A stretch of 64,000 nt of DNA from an uncultured Syntrophomonadaceae bacterium (GCA_964389365.1 CAYMDO010000001.1:5938-69937), one strand, 5' to 3'; shown: positions 38,043 through 62,048, counted from the stretch's first letter. The notes: a model not told the origin generated them from the letters alone. Numbers and translations: made by a program.

Positions 38043-39632
38043 TCAAACCCTGCAGCCAAATGATGTGCCAACAGCTATAGCAGAGCGCACCTGTTCGCTG
38101 TCCGGATTAACCCGCTTGGTACCGGAAACCGCTTCTTTCAGGGTTGCCGATCCAATGATGTTGCCGCTGAGACAGACCATCCTGTTAACTTTTTTTTCAT
38201 TGACCAGTTCAACTGCTTTAACCCCAAAGCGGGTAGCCAAAACCCGGTCATAAGAAGTGGGGCTGCCGCCTCTTTGCAGGTGACCCAGCACTGTAGCACG
38301 GCTTTCCATACCGGTCATTTTTTCGATCTCCCTGGATACAAAAAGACCGATTCCACCGAGCCGCTTTATCCCTCCCTGGATGCCATACAAAGGCTCTCCA
38401 CCCGCCAGATGAGCACCTTCTGCAATCACGATAATGCTAAATTTTTTACCACGCCTGCGGCGTTCATTTATTTTATCCACGATACAGCTAAATTCAAAAG
38501 GAAGTTCCGGTATTAGGATTATGTCACCCCCTCCGGCCATACCGGCCTGCAGGGCAATCCATCCTGCATGCCGGCCCATCACTTCAACCACCATGACCCG
38601 GTGATGCGATTCAGCCGTAGTGTGTATTTTATCAATAGCCTCGGTAGCTGTTGTTACGGCGGAATCAAAACCAAATGTTATGTCAGTGGCCGGGAGATCA
38701 TTGTCGATTGTCTTTGGGATACCGACAATCGGTACCCCCAATTCGCTGAAGCGGTGGGCTAACAGCAAACTGCCGTCACCACCGATTACAACCAGGCAGC
38801 TGATATCCCACCGTCCGAGATTTGCAAGGGCATCAGCTGAGCGATCCACACCCGTTTTGGTATAGTCAGATCCAGATGGTTTATAGTCAAAAGGATTGTC
38901 GCGGTTGGAAGTGCCCAGTATTGTCCCGCCGCGGTTGAGGATACCAGATACTGCAAGATCGTTAATAACCCTGGCATCATTTTCAACCAGCCCTTTAAAC
39001 CCATTATTAAAGCCTACCACTTCCAAACCATATTTATGAGCAGCCCCTTTAACCACAGCCCTGATCACAGCATTTAAACCCGGGCAATCACCACCGCCCG
39101 TCAGAATACCAATACGCCCATTTGCTTTATTATTCTTCAACGAAACCTGTTCCTCATTCCGGACAGGGCAGGCTGCTGCATCCGCATTATGATTATCCAG
39201 CGTCAGCGCTTCACGCGCCATGCGGTCAACCCGGCTATTATGCTCGTCATCGCCATGCCCCTTTACCTTGTGCCATTCAACTGTTAATTTATCCTTCAGC
39301 TCAAGCAGTTTTAACCATATATCGCGATTTTCAACAGTTTCTCCCTTGCTGTTACGCCAGCCGTTTATCTGCCAGCGGTCAAACCAGCGCTGCCGGAAAC
39401 AGTTGACCAGGTAAGCGCTGTCACTATATACCCTGACCGTGCTGCCGGCCGGTATCCTGGATAGGGCTTCGACTGCAGCTGTCAGTTCCATTCTTTGATT
39501 TGTTGTAGCTGCTGCTTGACCGGACAGCTCCTCTTCGATATCGCCAAGCATTATTAGTGCAGCCCACCCTCCGGGCCCCGGGTTACCGGAACAAGACCCA
39601 TCGGTGTAAACAATATATTCATTATTGTACAT
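38043..39632 (-). CDS. RNase HI domain fused in-frame to an ATP-type 6-phosphofructokinase
   Basis: Residues ~1-150 read YTDGSCSGNPGPGGWAALI...TNQRMELTAAVEAL...YSDSAYLVNCF...WHKVKGHGDDEHNSRVDRMAREA, carrying all four RNase HI catalytic residues D, E, D, D. A ~25 aa linker follows. Then comes a full PFK: RIGILTGGGDCPGLNAVIRAVV, GGDGSL, PKTIDNDL, MGRHAGWIAL. There is no stop codon between the domains. Start set at ATG 39632 (AGAGGAG 8 nt upstream). The ORF track's GTG at 39641 has no spacer. Confidence 0.75.
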   Translation of the reverse strand: MYNNEYIVYTDGSCSGNPGPGGWAALIMLGDIEEELSGQAAATTNQRMELTAAVEALSRIPAGSTVRVYSDSAYLVNCFRQRWFDRWQINGWRNSKGETVENRDIWLKLLELKDKLTVEWHKVKGHGDDEHNSRVDRMAREALTLDNHNADAAACPVRNEEQVSLKNNKANGRIGILTGGGDCPGLNAVIRAVVKGAAHKYGLEVVGFNNGFKGLVENDARVINDLAVSGILNRGGTILGTSNRDNPFDYKPSGSDYTKTGVDRSADALANLGRWDISCLVVIGGDGSLLLAHRFSELGVPIVGIPKTIDNDLPATDITFGFDSAVTTATEAIDKIHTTAESHHRVMVVEVMGRHAGWIALQAGMAGGGDIILIPELPFEFSCIVDKINERRRRGKKFSIIVIAEGAHLAGGEPLYGIQGGIKRLGGIGLFVSREIEKMTGMESRATVLGHLQRGGSPTSYDRVLATRFGVKAVELVNEKKVNRMVCLSGNIIGSATLKEAVSGTKRVNPDSEQVRSAIAVGTSFGCRV

Positions 39633-39653
39633 GCCTAACACTCCTCTTGCGCA

Positions 39654-42401
39654 TTAATCAGCTAAGCGGGAAAGGTCATTTAAAATCTGCTCCAGCTCGC
39701 GAATTTTCTCGCCATAACCTGCCCAGTCACCTTTCTGCTGGCGTGCCAGGGCTTCTTCGTAAACGCTCTGGGCCCTGCGAATCAGCTCTGCTAAAGTTGT
39801 ATCTTCAATGTCAGGCAGGCTGTCTGCTGCAGGCTGGTCTATAACGGGCAGTTCAGAGGGCGGTTGATCGGTGCCCCGGTCAGGAGTGTGAGCAGCCATT
39901 TCGCCGAAAATACGGATTAAACCTTTCTCCAAAGAGTCTTCCATAACTACTGTCTCCCCGAATACCACAATAACCCGGGCCAATTCCGGCAAACCGCCTC
40001 CTTCAGCTTCCAGGTAAACCGGTTCGACATAAAGCAGGGCATTGTTGATCGGCAGCACCAGCAGGTTTCCACGAATAACCCTTGAACCTGCCTGGCCCCA
40101 GAGCGTAAACTGTTCAGAAATCTCAGTGTTCTGGTCTATTCGGTTCTTAATTTGATTGGGACCGAGAATCACCCGCTCCTTGGGGAAGAGAAAAATTTCT
40201 ACATCCCCGTAATTGGGCTGGTCGCAACGGGCAACCATCCATGCAATCATGTTGTTTCGCTGGTCCGGTGTAAAGGGCAGAATTATCACATATTCCGGTT
40301 CGCTGTATCCGGGCAGTTGAAGTATCGTATAATAAGGCTCAACCTCCTGCTCCTGCCCAAATGACTGCTCCAGCGGAATTGCCCAGAGATCTTCTCGGGT
40401 ATAAAAAATATTCGGGTCAGTAATATGATATAGTGTGATAATCTGCGACTGGATATTAAAAAGGTCTTCAGGGTAACGCAAATGAGCCATTAAGCCGGCC
40501 GGCATATCTTCGATCGGGCTGAAGAGCTCAGGAAAAATTCCGGCATAGGTTTGGACCAGGGGATCTAAAGGGTCTATGATGTAGTAACGAACGCTACCAT
40601 TATAAGCATCGACCACGACTTTTACCGAGTTTCTGATGTAGTTGATATTACCGTATGGTGCCGAGTAGGGATAACTACCGGTTGTAGTGTAAGCATCCTG
40701 AATCCATAACAAGCGGCCATCATTAATCACGATGTATGGGTCACTGTCATACTTTAGGAAAGGCGCCAGTTTACGGACCCGCTCATGAATGTTACGGTCA
40801 AATAAAACTTTACTATCATTATTGAGTTCGTTAGAGACAAGAATCCGGTATTCCCCGAATTTTAAAGCAAAGAGCGCCCGGCGGAGAATGGAATGCAACT
40901 CAATACCGGCTTCTCCACTATAAAAGGTATATTCGTTAACATCACCGGCTGTGGCATAATGAAATTCAGGGGTATCGGTATTAACAATCACATAATCATC
41001 CGTGATCTCGCCAAAATAAATAGCCGGGTTATCAAGCTCAATGCTGCCGGCAGGGGGTATATCACCCAGAAAGTAACGTGGCAAACCTTCGTTGGTTACC
41101 TCGTTTACAGGGCTCATTGTTACACCGTAACCATGGGTCCACTGCAGCTGCAGATTAACCCAGGTTTGGGCCTGTGCTGCAAGTCGGCTTTTATCCAGTT
41201 CACGCGCAGAGATCATAACCTGGCGATAGCTGCCATCAATCATATAACGGTCGATGTCGCCATCAACAAAACGGTAATATAGCCTGATTGCCTGAAGTTC
41301 GTTAAAGGTGGTTAAAAGCGGACGGTGATCCCAGAGCCTTACATTGTTCATAGTACCCTGGTTTTCCTGTAAATCAGACCAGGTTATATTGGCGCTAGGA
41401 TCGTACAGCCTGGTAGCAAAATCCTCAACGCCATAAGCCATACGGGTAAACGCAATATTGTGTTCTATAAACTCACGTTCATAACTAAACTCGTTCGGCT
41501 CAACAACGAAACTCTGTATTGCTGCCGGGTAAGCGCCACCGCCAAGCATGGAAACACCGGTTAGAATCAGGATCCCGTATATGAAAAACCGGAAGCGGCG
41601 CAAGAAAATATTGGCAAGAAAAACGGCAGCTATAAACAGTGCCAGATACATGAGAACCGTTAGCACCACATAGTTGGCATGAATATCGGTATAACCTGCC
41701 CCATAGACTATGCCGCGCTGAGATAAAACAAGTTCGAACTGCTGCAGGCGGTAATCCCATACTTTTAAGCCAAAGATTAGGGCCAGTAAAACTGATATGT
41801 GACTGACGCTGCTGTTCGGCGGAAGTATCCAGTTCTTCCGTCCCTGAGCTGGCGGGTTTAGCATCATATAGATAAAGCCAACAATGATTAGGGAGACTAT
41901 CAGGATCATCATTAAAAAGCGATAGATAAAACGGTAAAAAGGAAGCCTGAAAACATAATAAGAAATATCCGCACCAAAAACAGGATCACTGATATTGAAG
42001 GATACATGGTTCAGATAACGCAGCAATTCCATCCAATAGTTGCCGGCATAGCCGGATAAAACATAGGCAAGGAAAGCCGCGGCTGCAAGAAAATAAAATA
42101 CAAGGCGTCGCGGAGTCAGAAGCTGCATCATCCCTGAGGCCATCAATCTTTCCCGCAGAGCAAGGTTGGGGAAGCTCAAAATATAACGGCGGGTTAAAAG
42201 CAGGTTGGCAAAAAGCACTGCAAAAATAAATAAAATGGCCCCGATTCTCATGCCCCATCGGGTCAGGTGCTGAGTCCAAAAAACCTGGGCTGCATCAAGA
42301 TCACGGAACCAAAGCAGGTCAAGATAAAAATTAGTGCCAGTTAATAAGACTGACCCGATAATCGCAAAAACCACTATGATCAAAACAAAACGGCTGCGCA
42401 T
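39654..42401 (-). CDS. UPF0182 family large polytopic membrane protein
   Basis: 915 aa. The N-terminus has multiple TM helices and the family-typical ...YLDLLWFRDL... opening, followed by a long extracytoplasmic region. Its stop is 12 nt from the rnhA-pfk start. Confidence 0.8.
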   Translation of the reverse strand: MRSRFVLIIVVFAIIGSVLLTGTNFYLDLLWFRDLDAAQVFWTQHLTRWGMRIGAILFIFAVLFANLLLTRRYILSFPNLALRERLMASGMMQLLTPRRLVFYFLAAAAFLAYVLSGYAGNYWMELLRYLNHVSFNISDPVFGADISYYVFRLPFYRFIYRFLMMILIVSLIIVGFIYMMLNPPAQGRKNWILPPNSSVSHISVLLALIFGLKVWDYRLQQFELVLSQRGIVYGAGYTDIHANYVVLTVLMYLALFIAAVFLANIFLRRFRFFIYGILILTGVSMLGGGAYPAAIQSFVVEPNEFSYEREFIEHNIAFTRMAYGVEDFATRLYDPSANITWSDLQENQGTMNNVRLWDHRPLLTTFNELQAIRLYYRFVDGDIDRYMIDGSYRQVMISARELDKSRLAAQAQTWVNLQLQWTHGYGVTMSPVNEVTNEGLPRYFLGDIPPAGSIELDNPAIYFGEITDDYVIVNTDTPEFHYATAGDVNEYTFYSGEAGIELHSILRRALFALKFGEYRILVSNELNNDSKVLFDRNIHERVRKLAPFLKYDSDPYIVINDGRLLWIQDAYTTTGSYPYSAPYGNINYIRNSVKVVVDAYNGSVRYYIIDPLDPLVQTYAGIFPELFSPIEDMPAGLMAHLRYPEDLFNIQSQIITLYHITDPNIFYTREDLWAIPLEQSFGQEQEVEPYYTILQLPGYSEPEYVIILPFTPDQRNNMIAWMVARCDQPNYGDVEIFLFPKERVILGPNQIKNRIDQNTEISEQFTLWGQAGSRVIRGNLLVLPINNALLYVEPVYLEAEGGGLPELARVIVVFGETVVMEDSLEKGLIRIFGEMAAHTPDRGTDQPPSELPVIDQPAADSLPDIEDTTLAELIRRAQSVYEEALARQQKGDWAGYGEKIRELEQILNDLSRLAD

Positions 42402-59150: not shown

Positions 59151-61628
59151 TTAGCGGACCACAACATTAACCAGTCGCCCCGGAACGGCAATTATTTTGA
59201 TAATTTCTTTGCCTTCTATCAGGCGGCCAACTCTTTCACTGCTCTTAGCAAACTGAGCAAGTTCCTCTGCAGAGCACTCAGCAGGAACTGTGAACCGGCC
59301 GCGCAGCTTGCCGTTGATCTGAACTGCAATTTCCAATTCTTCCACAACCAGTTTTGCAGGGTCATGCTCCGGCCAGGCCTGACTGTGGACTGAACCGGGT
59401 TGATTTAGCAGGTGCCATGATTCCGCTGCCAGGTGCGGTGCGAAGGGGGCCAGCAGCAAGATGATCTTAAGCAGGGCATCCTTGAGCAGGGCATGGTTTT
59501 GCTCTTCCGGGTCCGATGCCTGGCGGTAAGCATATGCAGAGTTGACCAGCTCCATAATGGCACTGATCGCAGTATTGAAGTTAAAACGCTCCTGGATATC
59601 AGCGGTAACCTTTTTTATCGCTGCATGAACACTTCGTTCCAAAGATTCTTCATTCGTACCGTATAAAACACTGCCCGGACCGGCAGAAAACTGTTCGCGG
59701 CTATCTATAACAAGACGCCATATTCGCCTTAAGAAACGATGACAACCTTCCACTCCCTGATCGCTCCAGTCCAAATCTTTTTCAGGCGGAGCGGCAAACA
59801 GGATAAAAAGCCGGCCGGTGTCAGCCCCGAATTTTTCAACTATTTCATCTGGGGTCACTACATTGCCTTTGGATTTGGACATCTTGGCTCCGTCCTTGTA
59901 GACCATACCCTGCGCGAGCAGGCGGCTGAAAGGTTCATCCGTTCTGCTTAAGCCGGCGTCAAAGAGAACTTTTGTAAAAAAACGGGCATAAAGCAGGTGT
60001 AAAACAGCATGCTCTATTCCCCCGATATACTGATCAACCGGCATCCAGTAATCAACTGCTTCCTTTAGAAAAGGTGCGTCGAAACACCAGGGACTGGTAT
60101 AACGCATAAAATACCATGAAGAACAGATAAAAGTATCCATAGTATCGGTTTCCCGGCGGGCTTCCCTGCCGCAGACAGGGCATAGCACCCGGGTAAAATT
60201 ATCGTAGTGTTCAAGGCCGGGGACCCGATTGCCGAAAAGCTCAACTTCAAGGGGTAGTTCAACCGGTAAGTCCTCTTCAGGCACCGGTACAGTACCGCAG
60301 CTGTCGCAGTAGATTACAGGTATTGGCGCGCCCCAGTAGCGCTGGCGCGAAATCAGCCAGTCACGCAGCCTGTAGGTTACCTGAAAGCGGCCCTGTCCCA
60401 GCTGTTCCAGATGAGCCGTCACCCTTTTCATCCCCTCAATATTAGGCAGCCCGTTAAAATCGCCGGAGTTGGCCATTATCCCTTCACCGGTATAAGCTTC
60501 ATGCATCGTGTCGCCATTCAGCACTTCACCTGCTGGCTGTATGACCACTTTAACCGGCAGGTTGTACTTGCGGGCAAAATCAAAATCCCTCTGGTCGTGG
60601 GCAGGCACACCCATTACAGCTCCTGTGCCATATGCCATCAGCACATAATTACCGATCAGTATCGGCACTTCATCGCCGTTTACCGGATTGATAACGTGGC
60701 GGCCGGTGAACAGACCGATTTTCGGGGCTTCGTCAGAGGTGCGCTCAATTTCACTGGCACAACGTATCATAGAGACAAACTCCATAACCCCAGGTTCACG
60801 TTCTGAGCCTTCAACAAGCTTTTTGACAAGGGGATGCTCGGGAGCCAGCACCATTGAAGTAACCCCAAAAAGGGTATCCGGGCGGGTAGTAAAGGTGCGA
60901 ATCTCTTCACCGGGTAATTCTTTAACCTTAAATACTATTTCTGTCCCTTCGCTGCGCCCAATCCAATTGTGCTGCATTGTTTTAACCCGTTCCGGCCAGT
61001 CCTCCAGCTTATTTAAATCGTTTAAAAGGCGCTCTGCGTATGATGTAATTCTTAAAAACCACTGCTCCAGGTCACGTGTTTCCACGACCGATGAACAACG
61101 CCAGCAAAGACCATTTTCAACCTGTTCGTTAGCCAAAACCGTATTGCAGCTTTCACACCAGTTAACACTGGCCCTCTTTTTATAGGCCAGGCCCCTTTTA
61201 TACATCAATAAAAAAAGCCACTGCGACCAGCGGTAATAATCAGGGGCCGAGGTGTTGATCTCCCTACGCCAGTCATAGCTGACGCCGAGGCGGTTTTGTT
61301 GCTTTTTCATGTGTTCTATATTCTGGGCTGTCCAGGCCGCAGGGTTAACCCTGTTTTCAATTGCAGCATTTTCTGCCGGCAAGCCAAAAGCATCCCACCC
61401 CATGGGGTGGATTACATTATACCCGCACATTCTAAAAAACCGGGCCAAAACATCACCGATCGAATAAACCCTCATATGCCCCATATGCAGTTTACCTGAG
61501 GGATAAGGAAACATTTCCAGGACATAGTATTTTTTTTGATTGTGATCTATTTCAGAGTGATAAGAATCTTCTTTTTCCCAAAGTTGTTGCCAACGTTTTT
61601 CAATTTCAGCCGGGTTATAGTTAGCCAA
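59151..61628 (-). CDS. leuS: Leucine--tRNA ligase
   Basis: HMGH and KMSKS class-I motifs (PYPSGKLHMGH ... KMSKSKGN), CP1 editing domain, 825 aa. TTG start after GGATGGAGG. Confidence 0.95.
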   Translation of the reverse strand: MANYNPAEIEKRWQQLWEKEDSYHSEIDHNQKKYYVLEMFPYPSGKLHMGHMRVYSIGDVLARFFRMCGYNVIHPMGWDAFGLPAENAAIENRVNPAAWTAQNIEHMKKQQNRLGVSYDWRREINTSAPDYYRWSQWLFLLMYKRGLAYKKRASVNWCESCNTVLANEQVENGLCWRCSSVVETRDLEQWFLRITSYAERLLNDLNKLEDWPERVKTMQHNWIGRSEGTEIVFKVKELPGEEIRTFTTRPDTLFGVTSMVLAPEHPLVKKLVEGSEREPGVMEFVSMIRCASEIERTSDEAPKIGLFTGRHVINPVNGDEVPILIGNYVLMAYGTGAVMGVPAHDQRDFDFARKYNLPVKVVIQPAGEVLNGDTMHEAYTGEGIMANSGDFNGLPNIEGMKRVTAHLEQLGQGRFQVTYRLRDWLISRQRYWGAPIPVIYCDSCGTVPVPEEDLPVELPLEVELFGNRVPGLEHYDNFTRVLCPVCGREARRETDTMDTFICSSWYFMRYTSPWCFDAPFLKEAVDYWMPVDQYIGGIEHAVLHLLYARFFTKVLFDAGLSRTDEPFSRLLAQGMVYKDGAKMSKSKGNVVTPDEIVEKFGADTGRLFILFAAPPEKDLDWSDQGVEGCHRFLRRIWRLVIDSREQFSAGPGSVLYGTNEESLERSVHAAIKKVTADIQERFNFNTAISAIMELVNSAYAYRQASDPEEQNHALLKDALLKIILLLAPFAPHLAAESWHLLNQPGSVHSQAWPEHDPAKLVVEELEIAVQINGKLRGRFTVPAECSAEELAQFAKSSERVGRLIEGKEIIKIIAVPGRLVNVVVR

Positions 61629-61649: not shown

Positions 61650-61688
61650 AGCATAAAAATAAAAAATCCGCCCGGTCAAGGGACGGAT
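61650..61688 (-). terminator. Rho-independent terminator between tRNA-Ala and leuS
   Basis: On the minus strand: ATCCGTCCC-ttgacc-GGGCGGAT followed by TTTTTTATTTTTAT. Confidence 0.6.
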
Positions 61689-61723
61689 TTATACCCGCGG
61701 TACCACCCTTATTGGCCATCTTA

Positions 61724-61798
61724 TGGTGGAGCTGGCGGGAGTCGAACCCGCGACCTCTTCCATGCCAAGGAAGCGCGCTCCCACTGCGCTACAGCCCC
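61724..61798 (-). tRNA. tRNA-Ala (anticodon GGC), CCA encoded
   Basis: The minus strand reads GGGGCTGTAGCGCAGTGGGAGCGCGCTTCCTTGGCATGGAAGAGGTCGCGGGTTCGACTCCCGCCAGCTCCACCA. The acceptor stem has the G3:U70 Ala identity pair. The anticodon loop is CTTCC-TTGGCAT-GGAAG, and the T-arm is GTTCGA. Confidence 0.9.
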
Positions 61799-62048
61799 CC
61801 GATCAGTTGCCCTCTTTTAGCCGTTAACGCCGGTTCTACGGCAGCGGCTAATCATTTTCGCCGCTGCTTCTCCGGAACGAGTTCAGCAGCCCTGCCTGCC
61901 GGTTTTCACCATTCGCCGGCTCCCTGAAAAGCATTCCTGCTCACTGCTTCCCATCATCAAAAGTTATATGGCACCCCGAGTACATTTAACATTATATGCA
62001 GGGACAAATCCATTGTCAATAGCATTGGTGACACAAGCATTCGCCCGT

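Follow-up and report, generated by a model that had tools for sequence, protein, structure and literature searches.

An in-frame RNase HI–phosphofructokinase fusion inherited across one uncultured Bacillota group

Known systems and how the fused protein compares

The best-studied fusion between RNase HI and a metabolic enzyme is the mycobacterial RNase HI–CobC protein MSMEG_4305, whose domains evolve at different rates and are joined by a highly variable linker (PMC7466739). Its domains were not seen to be functionally associated in vivo, and the authors attributed its fixation to drift (PMC7466739). In Bacillota, glycolytic phosphofructokinase (PFK) is physically associated with a ribonuclease system on mRNA, that is, with RNase Y, RNases J1/J2, and PNPase (PMC8152036). 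RNase HI is not listed among the components of this degradosome-like network (PMC8152036).

The 64-kb stretch of DNA analyzed here (the window) contains a fused rnhA-pfk gene at 38043..39632 on the minus strand. Its product shares with the mycobacterial RnhC/Rv2228c/MSMEG_4305 proteins an N-terminal type-1 RNase H, a variable linker, a C-terminal metabolic enzyme, and a distribution limited to one lineage. However, the partner is PFK rather than a CobC histidine-phosphatase, and the host belongs to Bacillota rather than Actinomycetota. Membership of the RnhC/Rv2228c family was rejected, as the CobC domain is absent and the C-terminal domain is PFK; the model NF005567 (bifunctional RNase H/acid phosphatase) gave 17.1 bits with the window protein, against a cut-off of 326, and aligned only with aa 5-83.

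Compared with its stand-alone counterparts, the protein has a full-length RnhA domain with the D-E-D-D and His residues, as in 3h08, 1ril, and 2rn2, but is not a free protein of ~150 aa, its C-terminus running into the linker and PFK. Likewise, it shows the complete fold and all catalytic and fructose 6-phosphate (F6P) residues of the "mixed" family-A PFKs (TIGR02483; cf. B. stearothermophilus 3pfk and E. coli 1pfk), from which it differs in an N-terminal extension of ~170 aa that is a second enzyme, and in a mixed phosphoryl-donor signature. The degradosome-associated PFK (B. subtilis PfkA type) is bound non-covalently and without RNase HI or RNA:DNA hybrids, whereas the present union is covalent; no evidence linking the two was found.

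A further comparison is provided by separate rnhA-pfk pairs in related genomes (L082, L091, L001, and L148), which have the same gene order and mostly the same neighborhood, with DeoC upstream and an ECF transporter downstream. The orthologues of the unfused pair are 65-72% (PFK) and 55-65% (RNase H) identical to those of the window. Unlike the fusion, the separate pair has a stop codon after rnhA and a Shine-Dalgarno (SD) sequence and start codon for pfk, with a spacer ranging from 13-15 in-frame codons to 186 nt.

The RNase HI-PFK architecture appears to be undescribed in the literature searched. Full-text searches yielded no description of an RNase H-PFK fusion, the top-ranked papers being irrelevant, and a search on Dethiobacteria and PFK was equally negative; in sequence and Foldseek searches, no solved structure was found to span both domains. 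Within these literature and structure searches, the novelty proposed for the architecture in an earlier, sequence-only reading of the window thus stands.

The fused gene and its two domains

The gene is a single uninterrupted ORF on the minus strand, with its ATG at 39632 and 529 codons before the stop codon (38043-38045), and the 529-aa product carries both Pfam domains on one chain, with RNase_H N-terminal and PFK C-terminal. An uninterrupted, in-frame fusion with intact catalytic residues had been claimed at this position in the sequence-only reading, and both the profile matches and the invariance of the residues bear this out; every motif that it quoted (DGS, MEL, DS, HNSRVD, GGGDCPGLN, GGDGS, PKTIDNDL, and MGRHAGW) was found. 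An identical protein is present in NCBI (P0001), on a 120-kb contig. No second pfk or rnh gene was detected by tblastn elsewhere within the 64-kb window.

The best start of the gene is the ATG at 39632, located 8 nt downstream of an SD sequence, GAGGAG (39641..39646, minus strand; read in the sequence), with an anti-SD duplex energy of -9.3 kcal/mol, and not the GTG at 39641, which adjoins this SD. Directly upstream lies a gene for a UPF0182 membrane protein (39654..42401, minus strand; PF03699, 952 bits), with its TAA stop codon at 39654-39656. The gap between the two genes is 21 nt from the ATG; a gap of 12 nt, as originally proposed, holds only with the GTG. No terminator-like site was found between the genes, in promoter and terminator scans that gave no more sites than shuffled sequence. 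UPF0182 likewise immediately precedes the fusion in L085-L089, L176, and L178, where 2-23 nt separate the two, and in L177, where the distance is ~205 nt. The order pyrimidine-nucleoside phosphorylase (PyNP), DeoC, UPF0182, fusion, and convergent ECF transporter is shared by eight fused loci and the window. Given the 21-nt gap, the lack of a terminator-like site, and the same tight spacing in relatives, co-transcription with UPF0182, as suggested before, is plausible.

The N-terminal half is, by its profile and residue matches, an E. coli-type RNase HI predicted to cleave the RNA strand of RNA:DNA hybrids. The domain (aa 4-143; 39204..39623, minus strand) matches PF00075 with an E value of 1.6e-36 and 126 bits (cut-off 25.8) over positions 2-140 of the 141-position profile, and scores 159.2 bits with the NCBIfam rnhA equivalog PRK00203, 0.8 bits under its cut-off of 160. 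Residues D11, E49, D71, H126, and D136, corresponding to E. coli D10, E48, D70, H124, and D134, are invariant in 55 aligned fused homologues. A stretch of this half aligns with what we take to be the basic-protrusion region of E. coli RnhA. The nearest solved RNase H by sequence search is 3h08 (E value of 5.6e-42), and 1ril was also matched. In the AlphaFold2 (AF2) model of the window protein, calculated as a monomer (mean pLDDT 75.7, pTM 0.59), both domains fold, and aa 5-147 show the strand and helix order expected of an RNase H fold, mostly at pLDDT 70-96. The Foldseek list for the model consists mostly of PFK chains, and the RNase H fold thus rests on the AF2 model and the sequence matches.

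The C-terminal half (aa 173-529; 38046..39116, minus strand) is, from the same kind of evidence, a family-A 6-phosphofructokinase. PF00365 matches aa 173-477 (E value of 5.8e-109, 364 bits) over the whole profile (1-277 of 277), and NCBIfam carries the match on to aa 526. The top NCBIfam model is that of the "mixed" subfamily, TIGR02483 (PFK_mixed; 431.4 against a cut-off of 430.55), and NF002872 is also passed (399.1 against 253). The top Foldseek match of the model is 3pfk (4.5e-30), with 42% identity over the alignment, and sequence search points to B. stearothermophilus and human PFKs as the best solved relatives. In an alignment with E. coli PfkA, which agrees with the 1pfk match, the window protein has a counterpart for each of E. 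coli D103, G104, T125, D127, D129, R162, R171, E222, R243, H249, and R252. The equivalents of the catalytic base D127 and of the F6P- and phosphate-binding residues are invariant across the fused family, and the interface residues R162 and R243 (E. coli numbering) are conserved. Solved PFKs accommodate N-terminal extensions, the match beginning at residue 94 in the T. brucei enzyme and at residue 194 in that of P. pastoris.

The nature of the phosphoryl donor is less clear-cut. In the comparison used, Gly104/Gly124 denotes ATP and Asp104/Lys124 denotes PPi, the latter pair being the PPi signature of PFK (PMC3608648, citing Bapteste 2003). The window protein combines G287 (equivalent to Gly104, ATP-like) with K307 (equivalent to Lys124), neither of which varies among the fused proteins, and homologues are labeled "ATP-dependent / diphosphate-dependent" by JGI. 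Of the earlier description as a complete ATP-type PFK, completeness is confirmed, whereas ATP dependence is, with this mixed signature, no more than probable.

Both halves are held under strong constraint. When the window is compared with its nearest relatives, the RNase H half has a dN/dS of ~0.09 and the PFK half one of 0.05-0.07, with dS at 0.7-1.3 and synonymous sites near saturation. Both activities are presumably retained in the fusion.

Distribution and origin of the fusion

The fusion is real and is inherited across one uncultured Bacillota group. When 5.8 billion protein clusters were searched, 70 further 90%-identity clusters that carry this fusion came up besides the identical protein, at 65-85% identity to the window protein and with lengths of 449-565 aa, which answers in the affirmative the question, raised at the outset, of whether the junction is conserved in relatives. 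All 71 carry PF00075 and PF00365 on one chain, and they derive from NCBI, JGI, ENA, and Logan assemblies; from the 72nd match onward, the proteins are PFK-only and ~360 aa long. Unfused PFKs of related Bacillota are 61-73% identical to the PFK half of the window protein. An uninterrupted fused ORF was confirmed in the DNA of nine loci, that is, in eight species-level sequences besides the window. One fused cluster is named "ribonuclease HI [Dethiobacteria bacterium]", and others are labeled "Bacillota bacterium". Public annotation gives the fused proteins one function only, either "ribonuclease HI" or "6-phosphofructokinase" (the latter at JGI).

In a neighbor-joining (NJ) tree built on the PFK part, the fused proteins all fall in one clade. 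A fused-only clade was recovered in 25/50 bootstrap replicates, and in 47/50 once the unfused protein P0073 was included; strict monophyly of the fused proteins therefore stands at 50% bootstrap, because P0073 at times nests inside. This protein has another genomic context, with a TrkA-like gene upstream, and may represent a secondary fission or a transfer.

Other candidate fusions were examined and set aside. Independent, recurrent fusions were rejected: among 1.84 billion 50%-identity representatives, only P0042 matches both domains, and the other listed matches cover the PFK part only. P0148 and P0159, two PFKs with N-terminal extensions of ~180 aa, were considered as divergent RNase H fusions and dropped, the extensions containing no Pfam domain. 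A metagenome scan with the N-terminal 200 aa returned mostly unrelated stand-alone RNase HI, with only L095 and L096 fused and L148 an unfused pair. A contig scan of GTDB species was dominated by the generic IPKTIDND motif, returning 79 unrelated PFK loci and the relative L001; the latter gave a tblastn match spanning residues 5-528 but was rejected as a fusion owing to an in-frame TAG in its DNA.

The unfused relatives indicate how the fusion may have come about. In both sister clades, rnhA lies immediately upstream of pfk (L082, L091, L001, and L148). The L082 locus (GCA_900198705.1) reads DeoC-UPF0182-rnhA, with rnhA encoding 150 aa and ending in TAA, followed after 186 nt by pfk, and that of L091 reads PyNP-DeoC-rnhA-pfk-pfk2-FBA, followed by a convergent ECF transporter. 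In two of these loci, L001 and L091, rnhA ends in a stop codon (TAG and TGA, respectively) that shares the pfk reading frame. From there, a spacer of 13-15 codons, inside which the pfk SD, GGGAGGTGA, is located, leads to the GTG start of pfk, the junction of this type reading ...CSD*RGKGIYSFQGGEA-V-RRLGILTGGGD. A single stop-codon substitution in such a locus would therefore yield the fused architecture. By contrast with these relatives, rnhA was found within 6 kb of PFK in only 1/80 PFK loci from other GTDB species, namely in L001. As judged from these gene orders, rnhA-pfk adjacency is older than the fusion and specific to this lineage.

Thus, the fusion most likely arose through loss of the stop codon between neighboring rnhA and pfk genes. 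In the proposed sequence of events, rnhA and pfk were already in-frame neighbors in an ancestor of the uncultured Bacillota lineage, with a stop codon and 13-15 codons of spacer, including the pfk ribosome-binding site, between them; the stop codon would have been lost once, joining the two genes, and thereafter both domains have been held by strong purifying selection, with the linker and the old internal pfk start left to drift. The long retention of the fusion, seen in saturated synonymous sites and in members as little as 65% identical to the window protein, may on the other hand point to a selective advantage.

Possible coupling and internal initiation, and the preferred reading

The two domains are connected by a linker (aa 144-172; 39117..39203, minus strand) that is predicted to be disordered, with AF2 pLDDT <50 at 147-169 and Pfam boundaries at 143/173. 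A linker had indeed been proposed from the sequence, at 25 aa; its length is about 23-29 aa by pLDDT and Pfam boundaries. Across the fused family, a motif-based cut gives lengths of 0-63 aa (median 33), and the sequence is hypervariable and enriched in K, R, S, N, E, and P. Between the window and its nearest relatives, the linker has a pN of 0.32-0.49, as compared with 0.04-0.11 in the domains, and a dN/dS of 0.15-0.26. Since unfused relatives have an in-frame spacer at the same position, the linker is likely to be derived from the RNase H C-terminal tail and the former rnhA-pfk intergenic spacer.

The most probable explanation is that the gene encodes one polypeptide with two independent housekeeping enzymes on a flexible, fast-evolving tether of ~25 residues, originating once by stop-codon loss and with a drifting linker and start. 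The PFK half would be expected to oligomerize like its relatives, so that several RNase H domains may be present per particle, and the fusion may be neutral or mildly advantageous, through fixed 1:1 co-expression, rather than a means of regulatory coupling. The analogous layout and uncoupled outcome of the mycobacterial RNase HI-CobC protein provide a precedent for this reading.

RNase HI and PFK are normally made at very different levels. A fixed 1:1 stoichiometry is odd for such enzymes and would hint at some further constraint or function.

An alternative is a functionally coupled bifunctional enzyme, in which the PFK oligomer would serve as a scaffold or an allosteric sensor. In its favor are the persistence of the fusion throughout a deep clade in which purifying selection on each half is strong, the lineage-specific rnhA-pfk adjacency that predates the fusion (1/80 PFK loci of other GTDB species), the decay of the internal pfk start, rather than its retention for free PFK, in most members read as DNA, and the partial retention of the E. 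coli effector site, with R21 and K213 represented by R191 and K396. However, the linker is hypervariable in both length and sequence and predicted to be disordered, so that no conserved domain interface is evident; RNase HI is absent from the listed components of the degradosome-like network (PMC8152036); and the mycobacterial fusion, the closest studied parallel, lacks functional association in vivo (PMC7466739). Coupling of this general kind is consequently regarded as unlikely. More specifically, the covalent link may be adaptive in that the PFK oligomer passes glycolytic or energy signals (F6P, ATP, ADP, and PEP) to R-loop or primer removal, or brings PFK to the nucleic-acid machinery, which is held to be a little less likely still. 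The suggestion in the sequence-only reading that the fusion ties R-loop and primer RNA removal to glycolytic status is not supported.

A second alternative is a dual-product gene, in which initiation inside the linker also gives free PFK and the fusion is then a minor species. The candidate site in the window, GAGGAA followed after 9 nt by TTG (39138..39155, minus strand), has GAGGAA at 39155-39150 and TTG at 39140-39138, corresponding to aa 165. Its anti-SD energy is -6.9 kcal/mol, a value matched at 12% of in-frame positions across the fused genes, and the codon matching the TTG is CTA in L085 and ATT in L095, the closest relatives with DNA, neither being a start codon. In L087 and L089, no start-like codon was found within 25 codons of the PFK domain. 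The site had been taken earlier as a plausible source of free PFK; it does exist, but with a weak SD and with no counterpart in four other fused species (L085, L087, L089, and L095), it is probably not functional.

More favorable to internal initiation is the ancestral pfk start position, which lies three residues ahead of the [I/L]G motif and is where 30/46 unfused PFKs begin. Here, L176 keeps an ATG with the SD GAGGTGG at -10.4 kcal/mol, on a par with the regular start of that gene (-9.5), and L175 has an ATG with a weak SD; on the other hand, the ATG of L177 lacks an SD, and L178 has retained the SD but with GTC as the codon. Among the 71 fused proteins, a residue compatible with a start occupies this position in 35 (M 13, V 13, L 5, and I 4). 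The pattern of lost codons and SDs looks like neutral decay of a relic pfk start, and a dual product is accordingly considered improbable; in the window genome, PFK is probably made essentially only as the fusion protein.

Finally, an assembly, sequencing, or gene-model artefact, that is, a missing stop codon or an indel joining two genes, a worry that the sequence-only reading had itself raised, is extremely improbable, because, although close relatives have separate rnhA and pfk genes in the same order, in two cases with a single in-frame stop, so that an error of one base could mimic a fusion in a single genome, the 71 distinct clusters come from independent projects and assemblers, their linkers differ in length and sequence and yet all remain in frame, nine fused loci are confirmed in DNA, and the fused proteins form one clade. 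That reading had also envisaged separate, adjacent orthologues with this genome as the sole fused case; such orthologues exist, but the genome is one of many that are fused, and the separate loci therefore show the origin of the fusion and not a sequencing error. An uncoupled, possibly neutral fusion is thus the favored interpretation.

Both enzymes are textbook examples, and the novelty lies in their being covalently joined and stably passed on throughout an entire uncultured lineage. With annotation assigning one function only, metabolic reconstructions from metagenome-assembled genomes may miss glycolysis or RNase H, depending on the pipeline. If the two enzymes were coupled, the fusion would offer a workable system for studying the reasons behind the association of glycolytic enzymes with ribonucleases, and, if the adaptive reading were true, it would be a "Rosetta stone" for explaining this association in Bacillota. 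In either event, the locus represents an unusually clean case of the birth of a multidomain protein, with the ancestral, fused, and start-decay stages all present in living relatives.

The rnhA-pfk junction in unfused relatives

In two of the unfused relatives, in which rnhA and pfk are separate adjacent genes, rnhA ends in a stop codon (TAG or TGA) that shares the pfk frame and is just 13-15 codons 5' of pfk (L001, 6451-6500; L091, 5950-6003). Low-level stop-codon read-through could mean that some fusion protein is already made in these nominally unfused genomes. In a third such locus, L082, the rnhA-pfk spacer has grown to 186 nt, with GGGGGATT-type repeats inside it. A 97-aa ORF was also observed approximately 250 nt downstream of pfk in this locus (L082, 7341-7634), and likewise in L081 and L084; in L082, it is nearly a copy of the C-terminal 90 residues of the adjacent PFK and, by this resemblance, is a partial tandem duplication.

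Unfused and N-terminally extended PFKs

P0073, an unfused PFK of 360 aa encoded at locus L090 (1486-2568), was placed with or within the fused clade in the tree of the PFK part, with the grouping of the fused proteins and P0073 recovered in 47 of 50 bootstraps. Its gene context is unlike that of the fused loci, with a TrkA-like gene ahead of the PFK gene. P0073 may have lost its RNase H domain secondarily, or the PFK part may have been transferred horizontally.

With respect to the genes following pfk, a second PFK (421 aa) and a fructose-bisphosphate aldolase are encoded immediately 3' of pfk in L091 (7334-9431); neither occurs at that point in any fused locus, as the ECF transporter gene comes directly after the fusion gene there. 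Two PFK representatives of other lineages, P0148 (563 aa) and P0159 (532 aa), carry N-terminal extensions of approximately 180 aa, in which no Pfam family was matched. These proteins could be other uncharacterized PFK fusions, or their starts could be miscalled.

A tRNA-Ala gene within the leuS T-box leader

Upstream of leuS (window 59151-61628, minus strand), a T-box leader was detected at 61676-61966 on the same strand (107.5 bits, with the full Rfam model covered), and its specifier was read from the sequence as CUC (Leu). An 88-nt insertion immediately 5' of the conserved T-box (antiterminator) sequence constitutes a complete tRNA-Ala(GGC) gene (61724-61798), which has a G3:U70 pair and encodes the CCA. 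A single full-text literature search found no precedent for this. Because the tRNA-Ala gene lies within the leader, and the terminator hairpin and U-run come after it, the leader promoter would yield tRNA-Ala independently of whether leuS is read through.
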